Source of the DNA: Nanobdellota archaeon
Lineage (GTDB): Archaea > Nanobdellota > Nanobdellia > Pacearchaeales > GW2011-AR1
Assembly (NCBI GenBank): GCA_027364705.1
Contig: DAHXOU010000029.1
Location: 1 to 55,861 of the forward strand
Direction: 5' to 3'
DNA length: 55,861 bases
Shown in pieces: positions 10,438-39,294 of this stretch (the stretch's first letter is position 1; each line of letters opens with the position of its first letter). The notes below the pieces were generated by a model, which saw nothing but the letters and a program-made list of their open reading frames with translations, did no database searches and had not been told where the DNA came from. A program made the translations under genes and the position numbers.

Positions 10438-12243
10438 ATGGGAAAAGAAATTAAGCTTGCAGATTATTTAATTAATTCTTTCGGAGAAAATGGGATTGGA
10501 CATATTTTTGAAGTATATGGTGCTGCTAATGGAGATTTAATCGACGCATTTACTAGAACAAATAAAACAAAATACATTTCTGTGATGCATGAACAAGCAG
10601 GAGGATTTGCTGCAGAAGGTTATGCAAAGGTTGCGGAGAAACCAGGAGTTGCAATTGCAACAAGCGGACCTGGAGGACAAAATTTTCTTACTCCTATTGC
10701 AAATTGTTATTATGATTCTGTTCCTGCAATATTCCTGACTGGACAGGTTGATTCAAGATTTTTAAGACCTACAGAAAACATTCGTCAAAGAGGATTTCAG
10801 GAAACTCCTATCGCAGAAATTGTAGCTCCTGTAACAAAATATTCTAAGATGATTACCGATCCAAATTCAATTAAATATGAATTTGAGAAAGCAATTTTTT
10901 ATTCTATGAATGGGCGACCAGGACCAATCCTCTTAGATTTGCCGATGGATGTCCAAAAAACAAAAATAAATCCAGAAGAATTAAAAGGTTTTAATAAAGA
11001 AGAATTTTCAAATAATTATAATTTTGACTTAATTAATGAACAGATTGATTCTTTTTTAGCTGACTTATATAAATCAGAAAGACCTTGCTTGTTGATTGGT
11101 GCGGGAGTTAGACACGCTAAGGGAATTGAAGATTTACTTGAAATTCAGGAAAAATTAAAAATTCCTTGTTTCCCGACGTGGAATGCTTTTGATATAGTAG
11201 CTTCTGATAATGAATATTACGGCGGAAGAATTGGAACTTACGGAGGCAAAGGTAGAAATTTTGGAATACAAAATTCAGATTTGGTTTTAGGAATAGGTAC
11301 AAGAGTTTCTGGAAGATTATTTGGTGGGAATACAAAAGCTTTTTTGCGGGGTGCTAAAACATATCTTGTAGATATTGATGAATCAATGCTCCATAGAGAA
11401 GTTCAAGAAGTTCCTTTTGATGTTAATATTTATTCTGACGCAAAATTTTTCTTATCTAGACTTAAGGAAAAAATAAATTCTAAAACTCTTCCCGATTTTA
11501 CAAAATGGGCTGAGCGTGTTAAAGAATGGAGAGATAAATATGATCCTGTAAGACCTGAATTTTTTTCTCAAAAAAATCCAACTAACCCTTATGTTTTTAT
11601 GCGAATGCTTTCAGGAGAGATGAAATCTAATGATATCTTCTTGGGAGATTGCGGAGGCAACATTGTAATTGCGGGACATGCTTTTGAAACAAAACAAGGG
11701 CAACGATTCATTACTAATAATGGAAACTCTCCAATGGGTTTTTCTTTTCCTGCAGCAATGGGGGCTTTTTTAGCTGCTTATGAAAAAAATCCTAATGGAA
11801 ATCAAAACACTGTTTGTGTAATTGGCGACGGAGGATTCAATTTAAACTTACAAGAATTGCAGACAATTAAGAATTATAATTTGGGGGTGAAAACTTTCAT
11901 ATTAAACAATCATTGTTATGGAATAACGAGACAATTTCAAAGAACAAATTTTGAAGGGAGAGAAGAAGCATGCGGTCCAAAAGGATATCATCCTCCTGAT
12001 TTTATAAAAATTGCTAAGGCATATGGAATTCCAACGATAACTATCAACAAAAATTCTGAAGCTAAAAATAAAATAAGAAAAGTTTTAGATCATAAAGGAC
12101 CAATTCTTTGTGATGTGAATTGTCATGATTGGGATACTTATGAACCAAGAGTTTTTGGTGCTTCTCCGATAGAAGATATGTATCCTAAACTTCCAAGAGA
12201 AGAATTTTTATCAAATATGATAATTCCTCCCATTAAAGAATAA
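10438..12243 (+). CDS. Thiamine-diphosphate enzyme of the acetolactate-synthase/YerE-like family (full three-domain length)
   Basis: 601 aa. N-terminal Pyr domain with the catalytic-Glu context HEQAGGFAAEGYA and ATSGPGGQN. C-terminal TPP motif GDGGFNLNLQELQT...ILNNHCYG. Confidence 0.85.
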   Translation: MGKEIKLADYLINSFGENGIGHIFEVYGAANGDLIDAFTRTNKTKYISVMHEQAGGFAAEGYAKVAEKPGVAIATSGPGGQNFLTPIANCYYDSVPAIFLTGQVDSRFLRPTENIRQRGFQETPIAEIVAPVTKYSKMITDPNSIKYEFEKAIFYSMNGRPGPILLDLPMDVQKTKINPEELKGFNKEEFSNNYNFDLINEQIDSFLADLYKSERPCLLIGAGVRHAKGIEDLLEIQEKLKIPCFPTWNAFDIVASDNEYYGGRIGTYGGKGRNFGIQNSDLVLGIGTRVSGRLFGGNTKAFLRGAKTYLVDIDESMLHREVQEVPFDVNIYSDAKFFLSRLKEKINSKTLPDFTKWAERVKEWRDKYDPVRPEFFSQKNPTNPYVFMRMLSGEMKSNDIFLGDCGGNIVIAGHAFETKQGQRFITNNGNSPMGFSFPAAMGAFLAAYEKNPNGNQNTVCVIGDGGFNLNLQELQTIKNYNLGVKTFILNNHCYGITRQFQRTNFEGREEACGPKGYHPPDFIKIAKAYGIPTITINKNSEAKNKIRKVLDHKGPILCDVNCHDWDTYEPRVFGASPIEDMYPKLPREEFLSNMIIPPIKE

Positions 12244-13525: not shown

Positions 13526-14740
13526 ATGAAAGAAAGGAAGAAAAAAATTGTATTCTATTCTGCAACTACTCCAACCGTCTTTTTGTATAAACTAGGAATA
13601 TTATTTAAAAAAAATAATTATGAGACAATTTTATTTACAACCTGCGAGAAGAATAGATTTAATATGGAATTTTATAAAAATGCCTTTAACAGAGTAATCT
13701 GTTCTAATTTTCATTTTGTTAAACCTTCTCTAAAAAATATTTTTTACTTTTGTAAAAGAACTCCTGACCTAACAAATTTTTTATTTTTTTTAAAACGAAT
13801 AAAACCTTATGCAGTAATCGGGGTGGCTGGAAGTAATTGGCAATTAAGACTTGTTCACAAATATTTTTTTAAAAAATATCCATTTATCTATCTGCCTTAT
13901 GATATTCTGTCTCATTTTTTTAATTCTCTAAATGAAGCATTAGAACATACAAAATTAGACGAATTAACTGCAGAAAAATATTGTTTTGAAAACTCTGACG
14001 GAATTCTCCATAAAGGATCTCCAGAAGAATTATCTTTTATTTCTGGGAGAATTTTTGATAATATAAATATCGTTAAGGATACTCTCAGTTTCATGCCCTA
14101 TTGTTCAGAGGAATATAATGTTCCAATAAATAAAAATAAACTTTCAAAAAAAGATAAAGAATTTCATACTGTCTATGTTGGGGGTTTTTTACATGACCCA
14201 TTATCAAAAAAATCTAATCAGGATTCTATTAAAAAATTATTAGACCAAAATATACACGTCCATGTATATGCTCTTTCTGACCATTGTTCTAAAGAGGAAG
14301 AAGAAAATGCAATAAATGATTTCTTTGGAATCTTTATACAAAATAAATATTTTCACTTACATCACTCATTAGAACCAAAAGAGTTGATTAAAGAAATATC
14401 CCAATATGATTTTGGATTATTTTTTGCCTATGATTATTATCAAAGAACAGGTATAGAATTAAATCATAGCACGGGAAATAAAATTTCTAGCTACTTAGAA
14501 GCAGGTCTTCCAATCATTTATGATTCTAGGCTTTTATTTGTCGATCGATTAATGAAACCTTATAATTTAAACATCTATCTAAATGAAGAAAATATCCTGA
14601 ATACTCTTCAAAAAATAAATTATACTGCCCTTGTTAAACAAGTTGAAAAAATGAGATCTGATTTTGATATGGATAGAAATTTTTCAAGACTAAATGAGTT
14701 TATAGAAACTATTTGTAAATCTGTTAAAAAAAGCCCATAA
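13526..14740 (+). CDS. Hypothetical protein, possibly a divergent GT-B-fold glycosyltransferase
   Basis: 404 aa; the long ORF is convincing as a gene. The only hints to function are weak: VYVGGF...GNKISSYLEAGLPIIY, reminiscent of GT-B C-terminal domains. First gene of the 11-gene operon. Confidence 0.35.
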   Translation: MKERKKKIVFYSATTPTVFLYKLGILFKKNNYETILFTTCEKNRFNMEFYKNAFNRVICSNFHFVKPSLKNIFYFCKRTPDLTNFLFFLKRIKPYAVIGVAGSNWQLRLVHKYFFKKYPFIYLPYDILSHFFNSLNEALEHTKLDELTAEKYCFENSDGILHKGSPEELSFISGRIFDNINIVKDTLSFMPYCSEEYNVPINKNKLSKKDKEFHTVYVGGFLHDPLSKKSNQDSIKKLLDQNIHVHVYALSDHCSKEEEENAINDFFGIFIQNKYFHLHHSLEPKELIKEISQYDFGLFFAYDYYQRTGIELNHSTGNKISSYLEAGLPIIYDSRLLFVDRLMKPYNLNIYLNEENILNTLQKINYTALVKQVEKMRSDFDMDRNFSRLNEFIETICKSVKKSP

Positions 14741-14767
14741 TCCATCTATATATGGGACCTTCATAAA

Positions 14768-14780
14768 TTATTTAAATTAA
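14768..14780 (+). promoter_or_regulatory. TATA-box candidate
   Basis: TTATTTAAATTAA centred about 24 nt upstream of the ATG at 14798. Confidence 0.4.
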
Positions 14781-14797
14781 TCTCACAAATTTTTTTT

Positions 14798-16051
14798 ATG
14801 AAGATAGTATTAACAACTCTCCCTAAAGAAGGGAGTGCATTCAATTGGGTAACTCCAAAATATTTTTATCCTGATGATTCCAAATTTGTTCCCTTAGGTT
14901 TACTTTCTTTAGCATCTAATCTACCTTCTGAGCATGAGATTACTGTTTTGGATCCAAATAGTTTTTGTTGGTCTATCGATAAAACAATAGAAGAAATTGA
15001 AAAACAAAGACCAGATATTTTAGGTATCTCTGCTGTAACACTTAAGGCATACTCTATGGTTAAAATATTAAAAGAAACTTCGGCTCCTTACAAAATTGTT
15101 GGCGGTCCGCATACAACGAACAATTCTTCATCTATTCTAAATCAGGGAGCAGATGCAACTTTCATTGGACAACTAGCAGATTTAGAATTTGTAGATGCTA
15201 TAAAAAATAAACCCAAAGGAATTGTCTATTGTAATACTAACCTTAATCAAATAAAATTTCCAAACAGAAAGTTTATCGACATAAATTTTTATTATCCTTC
15301 ATCTATATTATTTTCAGCAAATAATAGGATGTCTACCTTTTCTAGTGTTGGTTGTCCACATCATTGTAGTTTTTGCGATGTTCAAACAAAAAAAATTCAA
15401 AGAAAATCTCCAGAATCTCTTTTAGAAGAAATGATCTATTTGCAGAAAATAGGTGCTAAGAGTATTCATCTAATGGATGATAACTTTAATACTAATGAAT
15501 CTTATTTAGAATCAATTTGTTCTGAGATGGATAAAAAAGAATTTTATTCTGAATGGAGTGGGAGAGGTCAGGCAAAAATAAGTCCGCATATAGCTAATAT
15601 GTTAAGTGAACGAAATTTTAAGAGAATTCATGTGGGGTTTGAATCTCTCTCGGATAAAACTTTGAAATTTTTTAATAAACCACAAAACTTTTCTCAGATA
15701 CAAAAATTTTGTGAGACTACAAATAAATATGGAATAGACATCCTGGGATATTTTATTATTGGTGCTCCTACAGAAACCGAAGAAGATAAACATACAATGG
15801 CACAAAAGATAAATGATCTCGGGATAAAATATCCTTATATTAACATTTTACAGCCTCTGCCAAATACCGAATATTATTCTTTCTTATTAAATGAAGGAAT
15901 CTACAAAAAAGATTATTGGGCAGAATATATTTCAAATCCTGTGCCAGATTTTATGTTACCTTTTCCTTACGGAGAAAAAAAGTGGCAAGAAGATGCAGAA
16001 TTTGTAAACGAGATGATAAACTTGTTTAAAGAAAAAAATGAAAATGAATAA
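14798..16051 (+). CDS. B12-binding-domain (class B) radical SAM enzyme
   Basis: 417 aa. N-terminal PLGLLSLASNL...IVGGPHTT, followed by SSVGCPHHCSFC. 14-nt overlap with the downstream GT9 gene. Confidence 0.85.
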   Translation: MKIVLTTLPKEGSAFNWVTPKYFYPDDSKFVPLGLLSLASNLPSEHEITVLDPNSFCWSIDKTIEEIEKQRPDILGISAVTLKAYSMVKILKETSAPYKIVGGPHTTNNSSSILNQGADATFIGQLADLEFVDAIKNKPKGIVYCNTNLNQIKFPNRKFIDINFYYPSSILFSANNRMSTFSSVGCPHHCSFCDVQTKKIQRKSPESLLEEMIYLQKIGAKSIHLMDDNFNTNESYLESICSEMDKKEFYSEWSGRGQAKISPHIANMLSERNFKRIHVGFESLSDKTLKFFNKPQNFSQIQKFCETTNKYGIDILGYFIIGAPTETEEDKHTMAQKINDLGIKYPYINILQPLPNTEYYSFLLNEGIYKKDYWAEYISNPVPDFMLPFPYGEKKWQEDAEFVNEMINLFKEKNENE

Positions 16052-16988
16052 AATTTTAATCATTAAAACAGGTTATTCTGAACTATTAGACAAAGAAAAT
16101 AATTCCCGCAAAGTTAGTCTTGGAGATATTTTAAGAACTACTTGTTTATTGCATTTATTCAAAAAAGATAATGTATCTTGGGTAACCGATGAATCTGCTT
16201 TTCCTCTTCTAGAAAAAAATCCTTATATTCATCGAGTTCTTCCATATGATTTAACAACAACTTTTCAGTTAATGGCCGAAGAATTTGATACCGTGATTAA
16301 TCTTGAAAAAACCCCTGGAATTTGTGCTCTTTCAGATAGAATTCGTGCAAGACGGAATCGGTATGGTTTTACTTTCAATAGTCAATCTGGAACTGCAGAA
16401 CCTTATGCTATGGCTTCGAACATATTAACTGTATGTGCAGACCCCCATCTTAAAAAAACAAATAAAAAAACTGCACAGGAACTTTTATTTGAAACAGTTG
16501 GAGAAACATGGAACAAAGAAGAATATGTTTTGGGATATACTCCAAAAACCGATGAAATATTTGATGTAGGTCTTAATACTCAAGTTGGGCAAAAATGGCC
16601 AACTAAATCGTGGCCTAGTAATCACTGGGATAAATTAGAAAGTTTATTATCGGAGAATAAAATAAAAACAAGTAGACAGGAAAAAAATAACCCCCTTATT
16701 CTCGGAGATTTGTTTAAATATATTGATTGGATAAATTCTTGTAAAGTTCTAGTTAGCAATGATAGTCTTGGATTGCACTTGGGAATTGCTCTGAAAAAAA
16801 AAGTTTTTGGGTTATTTGGTCCAACTCCTCATTTGGAAGTTTATTTTTATGGCCGAGGTAAAGCAATCCTACCCGAACCAGTTCCTTCCTGTCTGCCTTG
16901 TTTTGAAGGAAAATGTCTGAGGGAAAGAAATTGTTTGGAAGATATATCTCCAAATACAATCTATAATGAGGTGTTAAAAATAATTTAA
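16038..16988 (+). CDS. Glycosyltransferase family 9 (heptosyltransferase-family) protein
   Basis: 316 aa. ILIIKTG...GDILRTTCL N-terminus, VSNDSLGLHLGIALKKKVFGLFGPT donor-domain motif, and the C-terminal Cys motif CLPCFEGKCLRERNCLEDISP typical of GT9. The start may be at 16044. Confidence 0.75.
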   Translation: MKMNKILIIKTGYSELLDKENNSRKVSLGDILRTTCLLHLFKKDNVSWVTDESAFPLLEKNPYIHRVLPYDLTTTFQLMAEEFDTVINLEKTPGICALSDRIRARRNRYGFTFNSQSGTAEPYAMASNILTVCADPHLKKTNKKTAQELLFETVGETWNKEEYVLGYTPKTDEIFDVGLNTQVGQKWPTKSWPSNHWDKLESLLSENKIKTSRQEKNNPLILGDLFKYIDWINSCKVLVSNDSLGLHLGIALKKKVFGLFGPTPHLEVYFYGRGKAILPEPVPSCLPCFEGKCLRERNCLEDISPNTIYNEVLKII

Positions 16989-17010
16989 TTATTATTCATT
17001 AAATAATATC

Positions 17011-18849
17011 ATGGAACAAAATAAAAACAATATTAAGGATTACGATAACAATGATATTTTCTGGAAAAATTTTTCCAAAATCCAAAATAATCCTTATCTT
17101 GTTGGCGACTTAAATGATTTCAAATGTTTATTTGTTTTTCCAACGCCATCTGATGATTTTTCAAAAGACTATTATCCTACTCCTCTTGGGACTATGGCCT
17201 CTTTGGTTCGAATGAATAAAGGTCACGCAAAAATAATCACACCTGACGTAAAAAATTATAATCCTCTCGATTTTGCAGGTTATGATTTAATTTGTTTTTA
17301 TCCAATGATTGCTTCTTTTTCTCAGACAATGGATCTTCCGCAAAAAATTAAGAAAGATTTTTCCAATTCAAAAATTTGTTTATTTAACTCAGACCAACAT
17401 CAACATGAGATGATGTTATGTGCACCAAAAGCAAAAAATCTAGCAGAGAAGATTATGCAAAAATATTCTTCTTTAGATTATATCTTAGTAGGAGAATCTG
17501 AAAAATCTTTTATCAATCTCTGTAAAAAAATAAAATTAAAAGAGAATGATTTGGAAACTATTCCTTCTTGCATTTATAGAACTGAAGGAAAAATAAAAGT
17601 GTCTAATCAACCCATCATTCCGGTGGAATTTAAATTTTTACCATTTCCTTCTAGGGATTATTTGGAAGAAAAAATTTCCCCCGAAGGAATAAATTCACTT
17701 TCTCCAAGAATACATTCTAGTCGAGGATGTACTTCACAATGTTCTTTTTGTGCTGAATCTGCTGCAAATATAACTCTCGACGGAAGAAAACAACCCGTTT
17801 TAAACAGAGATATAAATCAGTTTATTGATGAAATAGAATTATTGCAAAAAAATTACGGTGCAGTTTTCTTTAATATTATGGATAGTTCTTTTGAAGATCC
17901 TGCAAAAGAAGGAATCATACGTATGAAAAAATTTTCTGAGGGCATATTAGAAAGAAAAATAGATGCTTCATTTAAGATTCATTTAAGGGCAGAGACAATA
18001 GAAAATCTCGACAATAATTTTCTTGATTTGCTTAAACTTTCTGGAGTAGACATAATCGGTGTCGGGGTTGAATCTGCTCTTGAAGAAGAATTAAAATCTT
18101 ACAAAAAAAGAACAACTGTCAAAAAAAGTATTTGCTCTATGAATAAGTTAGAAGAGCAACACGATTTTTTTGCTATTGTTGGATATATCATGTTTACACC
18201 TGAATTAAAATCTGAAGATTTTCTAACTAAAGTTGAATTCTTAAAAGGAATTAATCGTGGATGGGATTATATGAACCTATCTCATAGTATGCTTATCTTT
18301 CCTGGGAGCGAGTATCATAATCTTTTACAAAAAAGAGGATTAGAAGCAGAACATGATGAATTAGCTTTTTTAATCCCTTACAACTTTAGTGAAGAGAATA
18401 CAAGAAAAATTGCAGATGAAATGAGTAACCTCAAAAAAAAATGTCCTGAAGTGATAAAATTGAATAATGCATTATATGACGCAAAAAATTTGGTAAGTAG
18501 ATATTCTAATAAGATGAATAAACACTTATGGGAAAAAGAATCGGTCTTTTTAAATTTTAAAAAAAATTTATCTGAAATTTTACTAGTTACGGAATCAAAA
18601 TATTCTTCATATACTCACGATCTTTTTGAAGTTATCCAATCATCTTCTTCAGATAATCAAAAAGATTTAATCTTTGAAAAAAATATTTCTCCTTATATTC
18701 CGCCTCTATTAAATAAAACTACAAATTTAATCAACAATGTTCTTGAGGATTTTGAATCTTTTGGGCTTTCAACAAACAAACTTTATCTTAAAACATGGTT
18801 ATCTTTGATAAACACTCAGAAAAATATCGTCGGAGGGAAAAATGTCTGA
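17011..18849 (+). CDS. B12-binding-domain (class B) radical SAM enzyme with a long C-terminal extension
   Basis: 612 aa. SSRGCTSQCSFC after a Rossmann-like N-terminal domain. I recognise no motif in the last 150 aa or so. Confidence 0.8.
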   Translation: MEQNKNNIKDYDNNDIFWKNFSKIQNNPYLVGDLNDFKCLFVFPTPSDDFSKDYYPTPLGTMASLVRMNKGHAKIITPDVKNYNPLDFAGYDLICFYPMIASFSQTMDLPQKIKKDFSNSKICLFNSDQHQHEMMLCAPKAKNLAEKIMQKYSSLDYILVGESEKSFINLCKKIKLKENDLETIPSCIYRTEGKIKVSNQPIIPVEFKFLPFPSRDYLEEKISPEGINSLSPRIHSSRGCTSQCSFCAESAANITLDGRKQPVLNRDINQFIDEIELLQKNYGAVFFNIMDSSFEDPAKEGIIRMKKFSEGILERKIDASFKIHLRAETIENLDNNFLDLLKLSGVDIIGVGVESALEEELKSYKKRTTVKKSICSMNKLEEQHDFFAIVGYIMFTPELKSEDFLTKVEFLKGINRGWDYMNLSHSMLIFPGSEYHNLLQKRGLEAEHDELAFLIPYNFSEENTRKIADEMSNLKKKCPEVIKLNNALYDAKNLVSRYSNKMNKHLWEKESVFLNFKKNLSEILLVTESKYSSYTHDLFEVIQSSSSDNQKDLIFEKNISPYIPPLLNKTTNLINNVLEDFESFGLSTNKLYLKTWLSLINTQKNIVGGKNV

Positions 18850-19924
18850 ATATATTTTTAATTCCCCTATAAGTTTAGGTAACACTTTAATAAAAAATAG
18901 AATTGCATTTCCTCCTCTTGGATGCAATTGGGCAGATCAAGGAGGTTTTGTTAACGAAAAAATAATAAATCATTATCGGGAAATTTCTCGAGGAGGAAGT
19001 GGAATGGTTATTGTAGAAGGTACTTCTGTTTCTCCAGAGGGAAATGGAACCACAAATGGAATTGGATTGTATAATGATTCTTATTTACCTGGAATAAAAT
19101 TAATTCTGTCTGAATTAAAAAAGGAAAAATGTTTTTCTTCTATTCAATTACTCCATTCGGGGGGGCAAGCAAATCCTAATTTTACAGGACATCAACCTAT
19201 CTCTCCTTCTGGAACAACTTGCAATGCTACAGGATTCCCTTCTCATGAAATGAATCTTTCAGAAATAGAAGAGATAAAAAATAAATTTGTTTATTCAGCA
19301 AAACTCGCTGCATCAGCAGGGTTTGATGCTGTGGAATTACATTTAGCTCACGGTTATTTATTACATCAATTTCTTTCCCCTTATACAAATCATAGAAACG
19401 ATAAATACGGGGGAAATTTAGAAAACAGGGCAAGACTAATTACGGATATCATCCACGAGATTAAAATTCAAAATCCTTCTTTATTATTGGGAGCAAGAAT
19501 TTCGGGAGAAGATTATATACCTTCTGGAATAAATAACGAGATGAATAAAACTCTCTTGCCTTTACTTGAAAATTCAGGTATAAATTATTTTAGCGTTACT
19601 GCTGGAATTTATGATACTTCTAAATTAAAGCATGAAGCAATGATGAGGGGAGATTTTTTTAAATATAGTAAAGAGATAAAAGAAATTGTTAATGTTCCTG
19701 TTATTGGTGTGGGAAAGATACTTGATTTACTTACTGCAGAAAAACATTTATACGAACAATCTTGCGATATTGTTGCAATTGGTCGTGGTATGTTAGCAGA
19801 TCCATATATGTTAAAAAAATTTAATCGAAAAGAAGATTATAATCGATGTTCAGAATGTAATCATTGTGCCTATCTGAGGTTTGGTAAAAAAAGTGTAACT
19901 TGTCCTGTTCGAGGATTAGAATAA
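18842..19924 (+). CDS. Old-Yellow-Enzyme-family FMN oxidoreductase ending in an Fe-S-type Cys motif
   Basis: 360 aa. ELHLAHGYLLHQFLSPYTNHRNDKYGG OYE signature. C-terminal CSECNHCAYLRFGKKSVTC (C-x2-C-x2-C-x11-C, nt 19847-19903). GGAGGG Shine-Dalgarno-like site 4-5 nt before the ATG. Confidence 0.85.
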   Translation: MSEYIFNSPISLGNTLIKNRIAFPPLGCNWADQGGFVNEKIINHYREISRGGSGMVIVEGTSVSPEGNGTTNGIGLYNDSYLPGIKLILSELKKEKCFSSIQLLHSGGQANPNFTGHQPISPSGTTCNATGFPSHEMNLSEIEEIKNKFVYSAKLAASAGFDAVELHLAHGYLLHQFLSPYTNHRNDKYGGNLENRARLITDIIHEIKIQNPSLLLGARISGEDYIPSGINNEMNKTLLPLLENSGINYFSVTAGIYDTSKLKHEAMMRGDFFKYSKEIKEIVNVPVIGVGKILDLLTAEKHLYEQSCDIVAIGRGMLADPYMLKKFNRKEDYNRCSECNHCAYLRFGKKSVTCPVRGLE

Positions 19925-19925
19925 A

Positions 19926-20888
19926 ATGTCTAAGAAGGTTTTAATTTTGGGTGGAGCGAGATTCCATGGATTTCAGTTAGCCAAAAAATTATCTTCAGAG
20001 GGAAATTTGGTTTATGTTTTAAATAGGGGAAATTTTCGAGATAAATATCCTTCTTCAATCAACTTCCTAAAAGGAGATAGAGAAGACCCTCTTTTTCTCA
20101 AAGAAATATTTTCTCGCAATTATTTTGATTGCATTTTTGATAATAATGCTTATCTCCCTCGGCAGATAGGATTAATTTCTGATTACATTAAGAATAAATG
20201 TAATCATTATATTTTTACCAGTAGCGCTTCTGTTTATCTTAAAAATTTTTCAGACCATTTATTGACTGAGAAAGAAGCTACAGGGATATCAAATGGAAAT
20301 TATAATCCTTTTTTTGAACAATATGCTTTGAATAAATTTGAATGTGAAAATAAAATTAAAAAAATAGGGGGAAAAAAATACACTATCCTTCGCACCCCAA
20401 ATGTTTTTGGTGAGGGAGACTTTTCTGGAAAACTTATTTTTTTTAATACCCGAATAGAAGACGGAGGAAATATTCTTTTAGAAAAAGAAGTGAATCAAGT
20501 CGGAATAATCTATGTTAATGATCTCGTAAATATTTTAGCTAAAACTATGAACTGTGAAAGATGTTTTGAAAAAACACTAAATATCTCCTGCCCTACTTTT
20601 ATCAATAATTTTTTCAGTGAAATATATGGGGAAAAGTGTTTAGAAAAATTAACTTTCATGTCTTCTAAAGAAATGTGGGGAAATAATTATTCTCTACCTT
20701 TTGAGTGGAATCCTCCTCTTGAAACTTCTCTCATTCAATCATTAATTGGAGAAACGAATTACACTCCTATTTCTGAGTGGGGAAAAAAAACATTAGTTTG
20801 GGAGAAAAATAATCTCGGGGATATTAAAAGACCCGAATTTTCTAATCGGGGAAAAGAATTAAACTTAATTAAAAAATACAATGGTTGA
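19926..20888 (+). CDS. NAD-dependent epimerase/dehydratase (extended SDR)
   Basis: 320 aa. Rossmann N-terminus LILGGARFHGFQLAKKL, TSSASVY, and a catalytic YALNK (YxxxK). Confidence 0.65.
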   Translation: MSKKVLILGGARFHGFQLAKKLSSEGNLVYVLNRGNFRDKYPSSINFLKGDREDPLFLKEIFSRNYFDCIFDNNAYLPRQIGLISDYIKNKCNHYIFTSSASVYLKNFSDHLLTEKEATGISNGNYNPFFEQYALNKFECENKIKKIGGKKYTILRTPNVFGEGDFSGKLIFFNTRIEDGGNILLEKEVNQVGIIYVNDLVNILAKTMNCERCFEKTLNISCPTFINNFFSEIYGEKCLEKLTFMSSKEMWGNNYSLPFEWNPPLETSLIQSLIGETNYTPISEWGKKTLVWEKNNLGDIKRPEFSNRGKELNLIKKYNG

Positions 20889-21762
20889 AAATATAATTCT
20901 AAGAACTTCTTACTCCCAAATTCCAGGGGGGAAATTAAAATCTAATTTCGGGGATTTACTTCGGGTTTCTGTTTTAACAGAATGTATTGGAAAAGATTTT
21001 TTATGGCTGACGGATAAAAGATCCATAAATCTATTAAAATATTTTATAGACAAAGAAAAAATTATTTCTATCGACGATATAGAACCAGATAAAAATTTTA
21101 ATGCAATCAACATATACAATTTAGATAATTATATTTCAACTCCCGATTTATTTAATCGTATTTCTGGGAATTGGAGAGGATACATACCAAATAAAGAAAT
21201 TTTAAAACCAGAAAATAAATTAATAGAAGCTATCTCTCCCTACAAACCGCATAGAATAAATAAAAGTTTGCAAGAATTAATTGTTGAAGGATTGGGTTTT
21301 ACATGGAAAGGACAAGATTACCCGTTTCCTAAAACAGATATAACTGAATTTGTAGATATCGGATTAAACTGGTCTATGCCTTCAGACTGGAAATCTAAAA
21401 CTTGGCCACGAGAATATTGGAACGAACTTGAAGAAATATCAAAAAAAGATTATACTATTTCTTGGCAAGAGGGATTAGATAATATTGATGATTACGTCCA
21501 TTGGTTGTCTTCTTGTAAAATAATAATCACAGGAGAAACTCTCGGACTGCATTTAGCATCTGCTTTAAGAAAAAAAGTTTTAGCTATCCTTGGACCGATG
21601 AAAAATACTGAATTTCCTTATAATCGGTTGACAAGAATCTATCCTGCTGAAAGAGATTGTATGCCTTGTGATTCTCCAATTTGTAATCAAGGAGAAAATT
21701 GTTTAAACGAAATAAAACCGCAACAAATTAAGAAGATTATCGATGGTATACTTAGTACCTAA
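20881..21762 (+). CDS. GT9-like glycosyltransferase (shorter paralogue)
   Basis: 293 aa. GDLLRVSVL N-terminal motif, ITGETLGLHLASALRKKVLAILGP, and CMPCDSPICNQGENCLNEIKP. Parallels the genes at 16038 and 36857. Confidence 0.6.
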   Translation: MVENIILRTSYSQIPGGKLKSNFGDLLRVSVLTECIGKDFLWLTDKRSINLLKYFIDKEKIISIDDIEPDKNFNAINIYNLDNYISTPDLFNRISGNWRGYIPNKEILKPENKLIEAISPYKPHRINKSLQELIVEGLGFTWKGQDYPFPKTDITEFVDIGLNWSMPSDWKSKTWPREYWNELEEISKKDYTISWQEGLDNIDDYVHWLSSCKIIITGETLGLHLASALRKKVLAILGPMKNTEFPYNRLTRIYPAERDCMPCDSPICNQGENCLNEIKPQQIKKIIDGILST

Positions 21763-21765
21763 ATA

Positions 21766-21778
21766 TTTTTAAATAAAA
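21766..21778 (+). promoter_or_regulatory. TATA-box candidate
   Basis: TTTTTAAATAAAA centred about 25 nt upstream of the ATG at 21795. Confidence 0.4.
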
Positions 21779-21794
21779 TCTTTAATATACTTTT

Positions 21795-22847
21795 ATGGGA
21801 TCTATCCATCTAGATAGCAATAAACTAGCGCTTCATCCCGAAAGAGTTTCTGAGTGGAAAAATAAGGGAGATTGTTTTCCAATTTATGTTGAAATCGGAT
21901 TGACTAATAGATGTAATCATAATTGTATTTTTTGTGGATTAGATTGGGCAAGAGGAACAAATACTTTGGAAACCTCCGTTTTATTAAATAATCTTAATGA
22001 TATGAAAAATTCTGGAATTAAATCAGTCTGTTTTTCTGGTGCAGGAGAACCTTTATTGCATAAAGATTTTTCTCTGTTGGTTAAAAAAACAAAAGAATCA
22101 GGGATTGATGTTTCATTTTCTACTAATGCTGTTTTATTCAACGAAAAAATTTGTGAAGAAACATTACCTTATGCTTCTTGGATAAGATTTAGTATTGATG
22201 CTGCTTATCCAAAAACACATTCGATAATTCACAGAACTTCAGAAAAAGATTTTCCGAAGATATTAAATAATTTAGTTAAATCTGTTGAAATTAAAAAAAA
22301 GAATAATTATGCAACAACGCTGGGTGTTCAATTTTTGTTATTAGAAGAAAATAAAACTGAGTTATTAGAATTTGTAAAATTATTCCAAAAAATCGGGGTC
22401 GATAATGTCCAACTTAAACCTTACTCTAAGAATCCTAACAGTAATAATGCACTCTTCCAAGATTATGGTTCCTATTTGGAATTTGAAAAAGATTTAACAA
22501 ATTTATCTAGTGATACTTTTCAAATTTTTTTTAGAAAAAATAGAATAAACTCCGTCTCTTCCGAACCAAGTTATGATAATTGTTTAGGATTGCCTTTTTT
22601 TACAATAATAAATGAAAAAGGAGATATTGCTCCTTGTCATCTTTATTATTCTGTTCCTGATTTTTCTTATGGAAATTTATACAAAAATAATTTTTCAGAA
22701 ATATGGGCGGGAGATAAAAGAAAAGAAATAGTAGAAGAAATATCTCGAAAAGGAATTAATCATTGTAAAAAAGGATGCCGACTAGATAGTTCTAATTCCT
22801 ATCTTCATAGATTAAAAAATCCAGAACCTCATGATAATTTTATATAA
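21795..22847 (+). CDS. Radical SAM enzyme with a twitch/SPASM-like C-terminus
   Basis: 350 aa. LTNRCNHNCIFC plus SGAGEPL. C-terminal C-x14-GDIAPC and HCKKGC. Confidence 0.8.
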   Translation: MGSIHLDSNKLALHPERVSEWKNKGDCFPIYVEIGLTNRCNHNCIFCGLDWARGTNTLETSVLLNNLNDMKNSGIKSVCFSGAGEPLLHKDFSLLVKKTKESGIDVSFSTNAVLFNEKICEETLPYASWIRFSIDAAYPKTHSIIHRTSEKDFPKILNNLVKSVEIKKKNNYATTLGVQFLLLEENKTELLEFVKLFQKIGVDNVQLKPYSKNPNSNNALFQDYGSYLEFEKDLTNLSSDTFQIFFRKNRINSVSSEPSYDNCLGLPFFTIINEKGDIAPCHLYYSVPDFSYGNLYKNNFSEIWAGDKRKEIVEEISRKGINHCKKGCRLDSSNSYLHRLKNPEPHDNFI

Positions 22848-23476
22848 TGGAAATAAAAATAACTGTTAAAGAACTTATAGAATTTGAGAATAAAATTGCT
22901 CATTTATGGGAAGATAAAAAAATACCTTATCCAATTCATCTATCTGGGGGAAATGAGAAACAATTGATAGAAATATTTGGTGAGATAAACAAGGGAGATT
23001 ATATTTTTTCTACCCATCGTTCTCATTACCATTATCTTCTAGCAGGAGGTTCTCCTGAAAAATTAGAAAAAATTATTCTCGAAGGAAATAGTATGCATGT
23101 TTTTGATAAAGAACTGAATTTTTTAACTTCTGCAATTGTATCCGGTACACCAACAATAGCTACAGGAGTTGCTTTGGCATTGAAATTAAAAAAAAGTGAA
23201 AAAAAGGTTTGGTGTTTTGTCGGAGACGGAGCAGAAGATGAAGGGCATTTTTATGAAGCAGTTAGATATGTTGATGGACATGATCTACCCTGCACATTCA
23301 TTTTAGAAGACAATGATCGTTCTGTTGAAACTCCGAGGGAAGTTAGATATGGAAAATCCCGAATTAAATGGCCTGATTGTGTAAAGATATATAATTATAA
23401 AATTACTTACCCTCATGTTGGAACAGGAAAGTGGGTAGATTTTTCTGGAACTAAAGCAGGAGGTTCTTCTTTCTAA
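22847..23476 (+). CDS. Short E1-alpha-like thiamine-diphosphate-binding subunit
   Basis: 209 aa. FVGDGAEDEGHFYEAVRYVDGHDLPCTFILEDNDRSV matches the GDG...NN-type TPP motif of 2-oxoacid dehydrogenase E1 alpha, with EDND in place of ENN. TAATG coupling at both ends. Confidence 0.7.
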   Translation: MEIKITVKELIEFENKIAHLWEDKKIPYPIHLSGGNEKQLIEIFGEINKGDYIFSTHRSHYHYLLAGGSPEKLEKIILEGNSMHVFDKELNFLTSAIVSGTPTIATGVALALKLKKSEKKVWCFVGDGAEDEGHFYEAVRYVDGHDLPCTFILEDNDRSVETPREVRYGKSRIKWPDCVKIYNYKITYPHVGTGKWVDFSGTKAGGSSF

Positions 23477-24000
23477 TGAAATATAAAGATGCAATTAAAA
23501 AATCTATGGAAATGTTAGCAGAAGAAGATAATACTCTCTTTTTGGGTTATAATATCTCTTTTGGTTCTTATGCATATGGAACATTAAAAGACATTCCTTC
23601 TTGGAAAAAAATAGAAACTCCTGTCGCAGAAAATTTAATGATGGGTTTAGCAATGGGATTGGCTCTTGAAGGGTATCGTCCGATAGTATTCTTTGAGCGA
23701 CACGATTTTATGTTAAATTCATTAGATGCAATTGTTAATCATCTCGACAAAATCCCTGAAATGTCCAAAGGACAATTTAAAATGCCCGTTATAATAAGGG
23801 CTGCAATTGGTTCCAAATTTCCTTTAAATCCTGGACCACAGCATGTTCAGGACTTTTCAAAAACATTTAGAGGAATAATAAAATTTCCGATATATGATCC
23901 ACAAAATTCCGAGGAAATTCTTTCGGTTTATCATACTATTAAAAACTCAACTAACCCTTCTATGATTATAGAAAAAAAAGAGTTGTATGAGATAGAATAA
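23476..24000 (+). CDS. Short E1-beta-like pyrimidine-binding subunit; the usual C-terminal domain is missing
   Basis: 174 aa. The AENLMMGLAMGLALEGYRPIVFF motif is typical of the E1 beta / transketolase Pyr domain. The ORF ends where the E1 beta C-terminal domain would begin. Confidence 0.7.
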   Translation: MKYKDAIKKSMEMLAEEDNTLFLGYNISFGSYAYGTLKDIPSWKKIETPVAENLMMGLAMGLALEGYRPIVFFERHDFMLNSLDAIVNHLDKIPEMSKGQFKMPVIIRAAIGSKFPLNPGPQHVQDFSKTFRGIIKFPIYDPQNSEEILSVYHTIKNSTNPSMIIEKKELYEIE

Positions 24001-24001
24001 A

Positions 24002-24880
24002 ATGAACTCCATAAAAATCCCAGAAGAATTTAACTATATATCTTCTTTTTTGACTTTTAGATGTAATCTTTCCTGCCCCTATTGTCTCAATGCTTTTGAA
24101 GATGACTTTTCAAGAAAAAGAAATGAACTTTCTGGAGAAGAATGGGTGGAAAATCTAAATAGAATTGAGACAAATGTTCCAATAACTTTTACTGGAGGAG
24201 AACCTCTTGTGCATCAAGATTTTATTAAAATAATAAAACAACTAAAACCTTCTTTGAGTATAGACATTTTAACAAATCTTTATTCCAATACCGAAAAGTA
24301 TAAGCTGACCTTAGACACTTTTGTTTCTGAAATTAATCCCTCGAGAATAAATAAAAATTCCCCTTATGCTTCTATTCGTGTTTCTTATCATCCTGATCAA
24401 ATGAATCCCGCAAAATTAATCGATGACGTCAATCTTCTGAAAAATGCTGGATTTAATGTAGGAATATGGGCTGTTTTATATCCTGGCCCGAATCAATTAT
24501 CTGCGATTAATCAAATGCAATTTCGATGTAAGGACAATGGAATTGATTTTCGATTGAAAGAATTTACAGGAAAATATAAAGATGAACTTTATGGTAATTA
24601 TTCAAAATATCCAGATTCGATATTTATGGAAAAAACAAAAGAAGTTTTATGCAGAACTCCAGAATTATTAATTTCTCCTAACGGAGATATTTACAAATGT
24701 CACAGAGATTTATACTCTCAAGAATTCTCCATCGGGAATATAACCGATAAAAATTTTCAAGCAGAATATAAATTTAGAAAATGCAATAAATATGGTCAAT
24801 GTCATCCTTGCGATGTAAAACTTAAAACAAATCACAATCAAGAATTAGGTTATACTACCGTGGATATAATTAAATCTTAA
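24002..24880 (+). CDS. Radical SAM enzyme with a SPASM-like C-terminus
   Basis: 292 aa. LTFRCNLSCPYC plus TGGEPL. C-terminal C-x10-GDIYKC and CNKYGQCHPC. Confidence 0.8.
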   Translation: MNSIKIPEEFNYISSFLTFRCNLSCPYCLNAFEDDFSRKRNELSGEEWVENLNRIETNVPITFTGGEPLVHQDFIKIIKQLKPSLSIDILTNLYSNTEKYKLTLDTFVSEINPSRINKNSPYASIRVSYHPDQMNPAKLIDDVNLLKNAGFNVGIWAVLYPGPNQLSAINQMQFRCKDNGIDFRLKEFTGKYKDELYGNYSKYPDSIFMEKTKEVLCRTPELLISPNGDIYKCHRDLYSQEFSIGNITDKNFQAEYKFRKCNKYGQCHPCDVKLKTNHNQELGYTTVDIIKS

Positions 24881-36856: not shown

Positions 36857-38755
36857 ATGAATATTCTTATAATAAAAATAGGTGCCTTGGGAGATGTCCT
36901 CCGAACTAGTTTTATTGCTCAGGCACTTAAAGAAAAATATCTAAATAGAAAAGAAAGAAAATTTCCCGATATTTATTGGATAACAAGTAAAAACGCAGCA
37001 CCTCTTTTTGCTAATAACCCTTATGTTACTAAAACAATAATTTCTGAGAATAGAAATTCATTAAGAAAGATAAATTTCGATTTAATAATCAATTTAGAAG
37101 AAGATGAAGATAACTGTAGATTTGCTGCCTCTTTTAATGCAAAAGTAGTAGGATTTAATTATTGTAATGAAAAAATAGTTCCCACTCCAACGGCAAAAGA
37201 ATGGTTTGACATGTCTATCCTCGGTAAAAAACCAGAAAATGATATATTGAAAAAGAAAAATAAAAAAACTCACCGACAGATAATTTCTGAAATTTTAGAA
37301 GTAAAAGATTATCAGAGATATGAACCATTCTTAAGACTCACTCAGCGCCAGAGAGATTTTGCGGAAAATTTTCTCAGGAGACATAATCTTTCAAGAAAAG
37401 ATTTGATTATAGGAATAAATACTGGTTCAGCAGATCGATGGCCAAAACAGTTGTCTGTAAAAAAAACAGTTGAACTTATCAATAAACTTTATCGTCAGTT
37501 TAATGCAAAAATTTTGCTTTTTGGTGGCCCCGAAGAAATAGTTAGAAATGCCGAGATACAAAAACTTTCAAAATCTCCTGTTATTGATACTGGATGCGGA
37601 AATAATCTTTTTGAATTTCCTGCAATGATTAGTATCTGCAATACTCTCATTACTAGTGATACATTCGGTCTTCATGTTGCACTTGCTCTTAAAAGAAAAA
37701 CAATTTGTTTAATTGGACCAACTTCTTCTTCGGAGATCGATATGTATGGGCTCGGGGAAAAAATTATTGCCGATTCTCCCTGTGTTTGTTGTTATAAACG
37801 CGACTGTAAAAGCATGGAAAAAATAGATTTGAATAAAATAGTTGATGTAATAAAAAAAAGTATCAATACAAAAATAAGTATATTAATAACCGCATTTAAG
37901 GAACCAAATATTTCTAAGGCAATAGAATCCTGTCTCAATCAAAAAACAAATGCAGATTATGAAATAATTATTTCTGCACCCGACGATGAAACTTTGGAGA
38001 TTGTAAAAAAATATGCTCAATCAGATAAAAAAATAAAATGGATCAAAGACCCCGGAAAGGGAAAAGCTTACGCATTGAATTTTGTATTTTCACAGGTAAA
38101 TACAGATATACTAATCCTTACAGATGGAGATGTTTTCATTAATGAAAATGCAGTGGAAGAAATTTCTAATTTATTTATGAATCCTGAAATTGGATGCGTT
38201 TCAGGAAGGCCTGTTCCAATGGAACGCAAAAATAAAAAATATGGTTATTGGGCACACTTCTTATTTGACTCTGCACATAGACTAAGAGATAACTCTTATC
38301 AGTCGGGAAATTTTATAGAATGTTCTGGATATTTATTTGCTTTCAGAAAACAAAAAATTAATCAAATTCCTGTTGATGTTGCAGAAGATACAATTATTCC
38401 TTATCTTCTCTGGCAAAAAGGATACAGGATTGGTTATGCTGCAGATGCAAAAGTTTTTGTCAAAAATGCAAATCGGCTTAATGATTGGATAAAACAAAAA
38501 ATAAGGACCCACAAATCCCATATGAAAATTTCAAAATATGTTGATACAGAAACAACTCCTCAGGTAAAAACTTTCAAAAATGAATTGAAGGGAATTTTTT
38601 GGTTATTCCATTATCCTGAGACATTAAAAGAATTATTCTGGAGCAGTCAGTTAGCTTTATTCCGTTTTTACACCTGGTTTAGATATTATATTGACTTAAT
38701 CATTCTGCATAAATATTATCAGGATGGATGGGAAAGAATTGAGAGCACAAAATGA
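36857..38755 (+). CDS. Fusion protein: GT9 (heptosyltransferase-family) domain plus GT2 glycosyltransferase domain
   Basis: 632 aa. The GT9 part is aa 1 to about 335: ILIIKIGALGDVLRTSFI, ITSDTFGLHVALALKRKTICLIGPT, CVCCYKRDC. The GT2 part is aa about 339-632, nt 37871-38752: ISILITAFKEPN...LTDGD...ED..., followed by hydrophobic C-terminal segments. Confidence 0.75.
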   Translation: MNILIIKIGALGDVLRTSFIAQALKEKYLNRKERKFPDIYWITSKNAAPLFANNPYVTKTIISENRNSLRKINFDLIINLEEDEDNCRFAASFNAKVVGFNYCNEKIVPTPTAKEWFDMSILGKKPENDILKKKNKKTHRQIISEILEVKDYQRYEPFLRLTQRQRDFAENFLRRHNLSRKDLIIGINTGSADRWPKQLSVKKTVELINKLYRQFNAKILLFGGPEEIVRNAEIQKLSKSPVIDTGCGNNLFEFPAMISICNTLITSDTFGLHVALALKRKTICLIGPTSSSEIDMYGLGEKIIADSPCVCCYKRDCKSMEKIDLNKIVDVIKKSINTKISILITAFKEPNISKAIESCLNQKTNADYEIIISAPDDETLEIVKKYAQSDKKIKWIKDPGKGKAYALNFVFSQVNTDILILTDGDVFINENAVEEISNLFMNPEIGCVSGRPVPMERKNKKYGYWAHFLFDSAHRLRDNSYQSGNFIECSGYLFAFRKQKINQIPVDVAEDTIIPYLLWQKGYRIGYAADAKVFVKNANRLNDWIKQKIRTHKSHMKISKYVDTETTPQVKTFKNELKGIFWLFHYPETLKELFWSSQLALFRFYTWFRYYIDLIILHKYYQDGWERIESTK

Positions 38756-39294
38756 ACAAAGCAATTTTCTTGGACAGAGACGGAACAATAAATGTAGATA
38801 AACATTATATTCATAAAGTAGAAGATTTGGAATTGATTCCGTTTGCAACAGAAGGGATGAGACTTCTTTCTAAAAATTATTTGTTGATTATTGCGACTAA
38901 TCAATCTGGAATAGGAAGAGGATTATATTCTTTAGAAGATTATTTTGTGGTTAGGGAAAAACTAACTCAAATTTTAAATCAAGAAAAAATAAAAATTTCG
39001 GGAGAATATTATTGTCCTCATCACATGGAAGGAGTTGGAGAATATAAACTAGATTGTAATTGCAGAAAACCTAAAACAGGAATGTTAGAACGGGCTTCAA
39101 AAGATTTTAATTTGGAATTAAATGAATGCTGGATGATTGGAGATAAATTATCTGATATAATGGCTGGAAAAAATGCAGGATGTAAAACAATACACGTTCT
39201 TAGCGGACAAACAGAAAAACCAATTTTGTCCGCAAATTTTGTTGCTAAGAATCTTTTAGATGCAGCAGATTATATTCTGAAAAATAATTACTGA
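38752..39294 (+). CDS. gmhB: D-glycero-D-manno-heptose 1,7-bisphosphate phosphatase (HAD-IIIA)
   Basis: 180 aa. AIFLDRDGTIN, ATNQSGIGRG, the Zn-site pattern CPHH...CNCRKPKTGM, and GDKLSDIMAG. ATGA overlap with the upstream gene. Confidence 0.85.
   Translation: MNKAIFLDRDGTINVDKHYIHKVEDLELIPFATEGMRLLSKNYLLIIATNQSGIGRGLYSLEDYFVVREKLTQILNQEKIKISGEYYCPHHMEGVGEYKLDCNCRKPKTGMLERASKDFNLELNECWMIGDKLSDIMAGKNAGCKTIHVLSGQTEKPILSANFVAKNLLDAADYILKNNY

Follow-up and report, generated by a model that had tools for sequence, protein, structure and literature searches.

The window analysed here, a stretch of 55,861 nucleotides from a Nanobdellota archaeon (assembly GCA_027364705.1, contig DAHXOU010000029.1, forward strand), contains two short, overlapping genes, here called alpha and beta, whose products resemble the E1alpha and E1beta subunits of pyruvate dehydrogenase (PDH). 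Judged from sequence and predicted structure, the pair is a minimal, free-standing E1-derived thiamine diphosphate (ThDP) enzyme. Three things are constant in its family: the ThDP-binding elements on a scaffold of a diphosphate-binding (PP) and a pyrimidine-binding (Pyr) domain, a partner oxidoreductase, of the radical SAM/SPASM type or a zinc-dependent alcohol dehydrogenase (Zn-ADH), and a glycosyltransferase or heptose context. As to function, we put at about even the chances that the pair is a minimal E1-type carboligase, which would join a C2 unit from pyruvate to a carbonyl that the partner creates on a sugar. The family is widespread and has been catalogued, as phrog_34187, without an assigned function; new here are the mutually exclusive radical SAM and Zn-ADH partners, the context in cultured cyanophages, and a phage lineage that carries the genes in its head module.

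The alpha stop codon TAA (23474-23476) overlaps the beta ATG (23476-23478), giving TAATG. The same overlap (22845-22849) couples the upstream radical SAM gene to alpha, and the downstream radical SAM gene starts 1 nt past the beta stop codon. In Pfam searches, alpha matches PF00676 (E1_dh; E 2.1e-19) over profile positions 6-170 of 300 and beta matches PF02779 (Transket_pyr; E 5.6e-10) over positions 5-173 of 174; PF02780 (Transketolase_C) has no match on beta, nor anywhere in the genome from which the window comes, which is 89.6% complete. Alpha also matches DXP_synthase_N, reaches 20.1 bits on TPP_enzyme_C (cut-off 21.9) and has no match to PF00456 (Transketolase_N) at E ≤ 0.01. In a search against solved structures, residues 13-162 of alpha align with residues 49-206 of human PDH E1alpha, and residues 3-172 of beta with residues 5-177 of the 329 of human E1beta; since the latter alignment stops at residue 177, beta ends at the start of the E1beta C-terminal domain. 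The nearest NCBIfam models are those of PDH E1 alpha and beta, whose cut-offs are far above the scores obtained (TIGR03182, 90.2 against 393.85; NF006667, 74.5 against 321).

The alpha2beta2 E1 enzymes of PDH and of branched-chain 2-oxo acid dehydrogenase (BCKDH) (1ni4, 3exe, 1w85, 1dtw, 1umb) are the best matches of the pair in both sequence and structure (for beta, E 3.1e-14 to 3exe_B), and the pair shares with them the GDG...N motif of alpha and, in beta, the activating Glu and the His of QH.Q. The ThDP-Mg motif of alpha, GDG-X26-[D]N, is present as GDGAEDEGHFYEAVRYVDGHDLPCTFILEDN. The window alpha reads ILEDND at the end of this motif; when this is aligned to the human ICENN, the second Asn is kept, which we take to be the metal-binding one of the E1 motif, as in E1 structures. 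An alignment of 40 alpha sequences has 48 invariant columns, among them H31, T56-H57-R58, H60-Y61 and P189-H190. The corresponding alignment of 41 beta sequences has 29, and these include the cofactor-activating Glu, E52 (PVAE52N), which lines up with the PISE motif of human E1beta, and Q122-H123; the His of the beta motif G.QH.Q[DN] aligns with the His of the human QHSQ. No cluster-binding Cys motif is found in alpha or beta in these alignments. We considered H190 as the counterpart of the catalytic alpha-His (His263 in PDH, His291 in BCKDH); the alignment ranges put H190 upstream of these, and we make no claim for it.

AlphaFold2 (AF2) models of the two monomers, derived from the same alignments, are confident (pLDDT 90.2 and pTM 0.88 for alpha, 94.0 and 0.90 for beta). 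In VIA-align, the whole alpha model superposes on residues 34-271 of the 362 of human E1alpha (1ni4_A) with a Z score of 19.2 and a root mean square deviation of 2.2 Å over 194 residues. BCKDH E1alpha is a nearly equal neighbour, and 1-deoxy-D-xylulose 5-phosphate synthase (DXS) and split transketolase are found at Z 14.7-15.1. Unlike E1, the pair has no beta C-terminal (E2-binding) domain, its alpha ends at about residue 271 of the human chain, and its scores lie below those of the curated families. Because the Transketolase_C domain, a full-length alpha and the curated scores are all wanting, we regard the pair as a variant within the E1-derived enzymes. A co-fold of alpha, beta and the 292-residue radical SAM enzyme scored 0.00 against a mark of 0.32, in a run whose controls were not folded and which counts neither for nor against a complex.

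The short form is not peculiar to this genome. At E ≤ 1e-3 there are 1380 near-length relatives of alpha and 731 of beta, numbers far above chance. The best 120 alpha relatives are 204-249 residues long (mode 209) and 67-83% identical, and the best 120 beta relatives 161-296 residues (mode 174) and 57-71% identical; the ThDP-Mg motif occurs in 116 of the former, and P[VLI]AEN with the activating Glu and G.QH.Q[DN] in 107 and 117 of the latter. A library of 1.84 billion representatives yields 140 clusters (50% identity) with E ≤ 1e-30. Relatives occur in archaea, bacteria and phages, the named sources being Pacearchaeota, Nanoarchaeota, Omnitrophica, Phycisphaerae, Firestonebacteria and Erysipelotrichia. 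The distribution is patchy: within the phylum the short type is found in 5 of 401 sampled genomes (E ≤ 1e-69), and none of 27 further genomes from the family to which the window belongs has it. Among longer database proteins there are 731 matches at E ≤ 1e-3; 115 of the best 120 are 370-420 residues long, and 113 are natural alpha-beta fusions of about 400 residues in which the alpha motif precedes the beta motif. These fusions suggest an alpha2beta2-type assembly for the separate subunits. The PHROGs v4 entry phrog_34187, listed as of unknown function, is the fused, 405-position form of the family, which the window splits into two genes: alpha matches its positions 7-206 (E 1.5e-74, 252 bits) and beta its positions 237-405 (E 3.1e-59, 202 bits). 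The ESM-Atlas neighbours are short E1_dh clusters labelled viral, which we treat as a lead only. Literature searches of main texts found no paper on the short family.

The arrangement of the two genes was compared across 85 related loci, of which 5 come from genomes and 80 are the best among 416 metagenome relatives. Beta lies downstream of alpha in 67 of them and is fused to it in 3. No beta open reading frame (ORF) was called in 14; in 13 of these a beta fragment runs into the contig end, and in L095 none was seen. In L087, alpha itself is cut off. In one locus (L012, G221:C45:115231-115827), the alpha homologue is read through two in-frame TGA codons, which could reflect a broken gene or a different genetic code.

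Could the pair nevertheless be the decayed remnant of a full-length E1, that is, two pseudogenes? The short lengths compared with canonical E1 subunits are all that speaks for this. Both frames are intact and translationally coupled, hundreds of relatives of the same lengths at 57-83% identity are spread over archaea, bacteria and phages, the motifs are invariant and the AF2 models are confident; we rule the remnant out and leave it next to no probability. The first-pass annotation of this DNA had itself named frameshifted pseudogenes of a full E1 as one outcome that would overturn its view, and the conservation data exclude them. It had described TAATG-coupled ORFs of 209 and 174 residues with E1alpha and E1beta motifs, both well short of canonical E1 subunits, and had proposed that their domain boundaries be mapped with profile models. 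The coordinates, the overlap and both motifs are as it gave them, and the mapping, with PF00676 matched in part, PF02779 whole and PF02780 not at all, agrees with its account of the size shortfall and of a beta that stops before the C-terminal domain. Its minimal PP plus Pyr architecture is borne out by the domains, the conserved lengths, the ThDP motifs, the natural fusions and the confident monomer models.

We suggest that such an enzyme would work as follows. Alpha would give the diphosphate-binding PP domain and beta the pyrimidine-binding Pyr domain with the activating Glu, the E1 regions devoted to the E2/lipoyl machinery, namely the C-terminal domain of beta and the C-terminal region of alpha, having presumably been lost. 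In E1, the parts missing from the pair are those that serve E2 docking and lipoyl acylation. The partner oxidoreductase would make a carbonyl on a sugar intermediate that is probably activated by a nucleotide and derived from a heptose; the carbonyl maker would be the radical SAM/SPASM enzyme here and in other anaerobes, and the Zn-ADH in oxic cyanophages. Most likely, pyruvate or a similar 2-oxo acid would be decarboxylated to a ThDP-bound C2 carbanion, the C2 unit would be joined to the sugar carbonyl, and the resulting branched or extended sugar would be passed to glycosyltransferases for a cell-surface (N-)glycan. We favour a minimal carboligase because full-length E1-like pairs move a pyruvate-derived acetyl unit to keto sugars. 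Such pairs, of the alphaKADH2 type, are described as adding pyruvate-derived C2 branches in the aldgamycin, kibdelomycin, paulomycin and avilamycin pathways (PMC12247030, PMC4425429); for KbDH-alpha/beta of kibdelomycin the transfer to a keto sugar is reported in vitro (PMC12247030), and Pau11 and Pau12 are given as full-length proteins of 325 and 345 residues (PMC4425429). Like AviB1/AviB2, Pau11/Pau12, KbDH and the aldgamycin and kosinostatin enzymes, the window pair is of the E1 alpha/beta type and sits in a sugar pathway with no E2/E3. As far as their descriptions go, the AviB, Pau and KbDH enzymes are set apart from it by being full length and belonging to actinomycete antibiotic clusters, whereas the pair, at 209 plus 174 residues and with no Transketolase_C, sits among surface-glycan genes of DPANN archaea, assorted bacteria and phages, with a constant radical SAM or Zn-ADH partner.

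Other ThDP enzymes resemble the pair in part. Split-gene transketolase (6yak) and DXP synthase have the same PP-then-Pyr order, and a split alpha2beta2 form exists, but they keep the C-terminal domain and a longer Transketolase_N, both of which the pair is without; the transketolase architecture of PF00456, Pyr and Transketolase_C domains is likewise not that of the pair, which matches neither PF00456 nor PF02780. The two subunits of sulfopyruvate decarboxylase, ComD/ComE, carry their PP and Pyr domains on two small chains with no extra domain. They share the minimal two-chain logic but belong to another lineage (decarboxylase-like, TPP_enzyme_N/C), whereas the pair is nearest to the E1 enzymes. 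The sulfopyruvate decarboxylase superfamily is listed in the TEED paper (PMC2831816). The ThDP/FAD carboligases of the YerE type, named in the review for yersiniose, likewise use ThDP to introduce a C2 branch into a keto sugar destined for a surface glycan (PMC12247030); they are single-chain, three-domain proteins of about 600 residues from the decarboxylase superfamily, unrelated in architecture to the mini pair.

The same review places acetoin-cleaving E1-type enzymes in the superfamily of the pair (PMC12247030), and the reaction could in principle run the other way: the partner would oxidise a vicinal diol to an alpha-hydroxyketone, which the ThDP enzyme, acting like acetoin dehydrogenase E1, would cleave, leaving a shortened or rearranged side chain. 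A dehydrogenase directly upstream would suit donor formation as well as acceptor formation, and sequence does not separate cleavage from ligation. The label acetoin:DCPIP oxidoreductase beta that the JGI attaches to some beta relatives would fit as well, but JGI source names are automatic annotations. Cleavage would, however, release a C2 unit without an acceptor, with no E2 or lipoyl domain matched in the genome, and glycan islands usually build sugars and do not degrade them; we consider it improbable.

The carboligase proposal draws on the genes that accompany the pair. Linkage was counted in those 22 cellular loci in which alpha is flanked by 4 kb or more on the left and 4.5 kb or more on the right. 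The most constant partner is the radical SAM/SPASM family of the 350-residue upstream enzyme, found within 9 kb of alpha in 21 of the 22 loci; the 292-residue radical SAM enzyme is linked in 13, the 404-residue first gene of the operon in 12 and the 316-residue GT9-like protein in 9. The pair can have as many as three radical SAM genes at its flanks. Several of these neighbours also occur fused to it. In P0245 (697 residues), alpha-beta is joined to a radical SAM part that is 59% identical over 292 residues to the downstream enzyme of the window. P0344 (802 residues, on a 190-kb contig) joins alpha-beta to a radical SAM/SPASM enzyme that is 29% identical end to end to the upstream one, and P0241 (564 residues) has a GT9-like protein, 61% identical to the 316-residue protein, fused in front of alpha. 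At the level of sequence, these Rosetta-stone fusions confirm functional ties of the pair with the radical SAM and GT9-like proteins. That an oxidoreductase, radical SAM or Zn-ADH, is a constant neighbour plausibly lends indirect support to C2 transfer to a keto sugar.

Two further fusions were noted. In three loci (L064:5520-7286, L079:10306-12117 and L090:2534-4375), the partner radical SAM/SPASM enzyme carries a class I SAM methyltransferase domain fused at its N-terminus, in proteins of 588-613 residues. In P0203 (296 residues, on a 2.1-kb contig), a beta-like Pyr domain runs into an NAD-dependent epimerase/dehydratase of the short-chain dehydrogenase/reductase (SDR) type, another fusion to a sugar oxidoreductase.

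In two cultured cyanophages, S-SM2 (SSM2_198) and P-TIM68 (gp190), the family is represented by fused alpha-beta proteins of 402 residues with 51-53% identity. A Zn-ADH lies directly upstream in both, and a heptose-7-phosphate-kinase-like gene downstream, immediately in P-TIM68 and with one hypothetical gene (SSM2_199) between in S-SM2; an adenylyltransferase, SDR epimerases and glycosyltransferases surround the fused gene. None of the 18 S-SM2 ORFs scanned with Pfam, from about 6 kb upstream to 8.7 kb downstream of the gene, has a radical SAM domain. For the subtype of the S-SM2 Zn-ADH, no NCBIfam model scored above its cut-off, which gives no clue to its substrate. The main text of Sullivan et al. 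2010 (PMC3037559) mentions, for S-SM2, only lipopolysaccharide gene clusters of unknown role, and the word transketolase does not occur in it.

The division between partners holds beyond the cultured phages. IMG/VR contains at least 567 relatives, of which we analysed the best 80 loci, 79 of them with an alpha ORF. Within 3 kb of alpha, a radical SAM gene is found in 47 of the 79 and a Zn-ADH in 30; no locus has both, and the two that have neither hold alpha within about 230 nt of the contig end. Dereplication at 90% identity leaves 30 clusters (11 radical SAM, 18 Zn-ADH and 1 neither), and at 70% identity 12 clusters, 6 of each type. The radical SAM loci are mostly ordered beta, radical SAM, alpha, an order also seen in an uncultured phage of 735 kb (L099, LR756501.1, 7400-9618), and the Zn-ADH loci mostly have Zn-ADH followed by fused alpha-beta, with the kinase next in 17. 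On a quick unrooted tree of 72 dereplicated alpha domains with SH-aLRT support, partner type is clustered, the Zn-ADH label changing 4 times against a shuffled mean of 13.9, and there have therefore been few switches between partner types. The simplest account would be a non-orthologous displacement of the carbonyl-making step, by radical chemistry in anaerobes and by NAD(P)-dependent chemistry in oxygen-tolerant hosts.

One tailed-phage lineage, represented by about 40 viral loci (L109:2691-8606, L104, L112 and L127 among them), carries a GT2 gene (604 residues), a 254-residue gene of unknown function, beta, radical SAM/SPASM and alpha, in a cassette directly after the major head protein gene and with the portal gene upstream. 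No Pfam-recognised heptose gene is present among the 17 ORFs scanned on L109. As this lineage has only these five genes, the trio needs no dedicated sugar-activation genes nearby. The virion of these phages may be glycosylated with a tailored sugar.

The close association with radical SAM genes admits another role, in which the pair would be a redox or radical partner of these enzymes: a ThDP-bound enamine, as in pyruvate:ferredoxin oxidoreductase, would feed the SPASM clusters or couple with a substrate radical. The fusions to two different radical SAM families, the several flanking radical SAM genes and the beta-radical SAM-alpha order in many viral contigs and in the 735-kb phage would all suit it. 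Against this stand the absence of cluster-binding Cys motifs from both chains and, above all, the 30 of 79 viral loci and the two cultured cyanophages that have a Zn-ADH in place of any nearby radical SAM gene; it follows that the enzyme functions independently of radical SAM there, and we think this role very unlikely for the family. Confined to the radical SAM-linked form, a related proposal is quite doubtful as well: in it, the ThDP enzyme would form a single catalyst with the radical SAM enzymes next to it, the enamine coupling with a sugar radical (radical acylation) or reducing the SPASM clusters. If that were true, it would be a hybrid ThDP/radical SAM formation of C-C bonds on sugars without oxygen, and the phage clade linked to Zn-ADH would have evolved from it as a two-electron variant.

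Returning to the carboligase, we see several points that tell against it. The carbonyl-making role of the radical SAM partner is drawn solely from its mutual exclusivity with the Zn-ADH, and the nearest solved relative of the 350-residue radical SAM enzyme, BlsE, is a decarboxylase (cytosylglucuronate decarboxylase; E 2.2e-7, a weak match that covers residues 23-150 only). The Zn-ADH-linked and radical SAM-linked alpha domains fall into largely separate groups on the quick unrooted tree, which leaves room for different reactions in the two types. Alpha is without about 90 C-terminal residues of E1alpha, as judged by VIA-align. In S-SM2, SSM2_198 (L097:8971-10179) reads IIEDDC where its relatives have EDN[ND], so that Asp takes the place of the usual Mg-binding Asn, which P-TIM68 retains (IIESND). 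Finally, the window carries ADP-heptose genes while no transketolase or transaldolase is detected, which would fit an enzyme that makes a heptulose precursor.

That last possibility deserves consideration in its own right. The ADP-heptose genes between 38752 and 42406 (Table 1) are the likely source of the sugar tailored by the cassette, but the pair might instead be a minimal transketolase- or DXS-like synthase that makes a ketose phosphate for ADP-heptose (sedoheptulose-7-phosphate, a deoxy-heptulose or an octulose) rather than modifying a completed sugar. The genome encodes a GmhA-like SIS protein, an HldE-I-like kinase, GmhB and an HldE-II-like adenylyltransferase; it has no match to Transketolase_N or transaldolase, and the pair is its sole match to PF00676 and its sole match to Transket_pyr. 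The heptose kinase that follows the fused cyanophage gene, the DXP_synthase_N match of alpha and the DXS and split transketolase among its structural neighbours point the same way. At 89.6% completeness, however, the absence of a transketolase is not firm, and a canonical Transketolase_N gene is present in four of the five other carrier genomes. The Calvin cycle of cyanobacterial hosts provides sedoheptulose phosphates, which also counts against a phage-borne synthase, and the head-module phages have the trio and a GT2 with no recognised heptose gene among the ORFs scanned. A synthase would moreover leave the constant oxidoreductase partner and the radical SAM fusions unexplained. On balance we regard it as unlikely, and retain the minimal carboligase as the preferred interpretation.

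The genomic surroundings are those of a glycan island. The genome comprises 628,064 bp in 49 contigs, and the 56-kb window, about 9% of it, contains an AglB/STT3 oligosaccharyltransferase (52268-55075, minus strand), a Glycos_transf_4 initiating transferase, a flippase, several GT1, GT2 and GT9 enzymes, SDR epimerases and 12 radical SAM genes, five of which have a B12-binding domain and a sixth (17011-18849) is of the B12 type by NCBIfam only. For a genome of this size, the investment in glycan synthesis is very large. The sugar setting claimed for the pair in the first-pass annotation is thus apparent from the glycosyltransferases, AglB/STT3, the flippase and the ADP-heptose genes of the window. 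The same annotation had reported that E2 and E3 are absent, and we matched none, nor a lipoyl domain, across the genome; in Pfam terms, 2-oxoacid_dh (E2), Pyr_redox_dim (E3), Biotin_lipoyl and Transketolase_C have no match, an absence that the incompleteness of the assembly keeps short of proof. The source of sedoheptulose-7-phosphate in this genome is unexplained by the detected genes.

The operon that contains the pair (Table 1) is ordered as follows: the 404-residue protein, a B12-radical SAM enzyme, a GT9-like protein, a B12-type radical SAM enzyme, an old yellow enzyme-type flavoenzyme, an SDR, a second GT9-like protein, radical SAM/SPASM, alpha, beta and radical SAM/SPASM. Both GT9-like proteins (16038-16988 and 20881-21762) are short, and only the C-terminal third of the heptosyltransferase profile is matched. 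At the C-terminus of each is a Cys-rich stretch, C-x2-C ... C ... C, which could bind metal.

Upstream of the operon lies a second ThDP enzyme, of the three-domain acetolactate synthase (ALS)/YerE type. It reaches 374 bits on the acetolactate synthase large-subunit model (cut-off 538), and Pfam scans of the window ORFs found no other gene of the acetolactate synthase type. A homologue adjoins the mini pair in L001 and L042. With this gene and the mini pair, the island encodes two distinct ThDP C-C enzymes.

Table 1. Coordinates of the alpha-beta pair, its operon and associated genes. Positions are those of the window unless another contig is named.
Feature	Position	Strand	Basis
Alpha, mini E1alpha-like PP-domain subunit, 209 aa	22847-23476	+	Pfam PF00676, relatives, AF2 model, phrog_34187
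Beta, mini E1beta-like Pyr-domain subunit, 174 aa	23476-24000	+	Pfam PF02779, relatives, AF2 model, phrog_34187
Radical SAM/SPASM enzyme, 350 aa, translationally coupled to alpha	21795-22847	+	Pfam Radical_SAM and SPASM
Second radical SAM/SPASM enzyme, 292 aa	24002-24880	+	Pfam Radical_SAM and SPASM
GT9-like (heptosyltransferase-family) protein, 316 aa, same operon	16038-16988	+	Pfam PF01075, C-terminal part only
First operon gene, 404 aa	13526-14740	+	No Pfam match; weak sugar-transferase match, NCBIfam NF007325, 22.5 bits
Eleven-gene co-directional operon containing the pair	13526-24880	+	ORF coordinates; intergenic gaps -14 to +57 nt
Second ThDP enzyme, 601 aa, three-domain ALS/YerE type (TPP_enzyme_N, M, C)	10438-12243	+	
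GmhB phosphatase	38752-39294	+	NCBIfam TIGR00213, 157.4 bits, above cut-off 149.6
HldE-domain-I-like kinase	39288-40229	-	NCBIfam TIGR02198, 317.1 bits, below cut-off 345
HldE-domain-II-like adenylyltransferase	41921-42406	+	NCBIfam TIGR02199, 141.6 bits, below cut-off 181.5
GmhA-like SIS gene	G000:C39:19255-19626 (another contig of the same genome)		

According to a review of the field, no structure of any alphaKADH2 carboligase has been solved (PMC12247030). If our interpretation is correct, the pair would be the smallest E1-type ThDP enzyme, a PP plus Pyr core of about 380 residues, and would separate the catalytic parts of E1 from those that serve the complex. There is demand in biocatalysis for small ThDP carboligases with ketone acceptors, and the presence of the family in two cultured cyanophages, S-SM2 and P-TIM68, makes bench testing feasible. 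For the archaeon, the cassette points to an unusual sugar, probably branched or chain-extended and likely heptose-derived. For the family as a whole, E1-type C-C chemistry on sugars would extend from the antibiotics of actinomycetes to the surface glycans of DPANN archaea, uncultured bacteria and phages.

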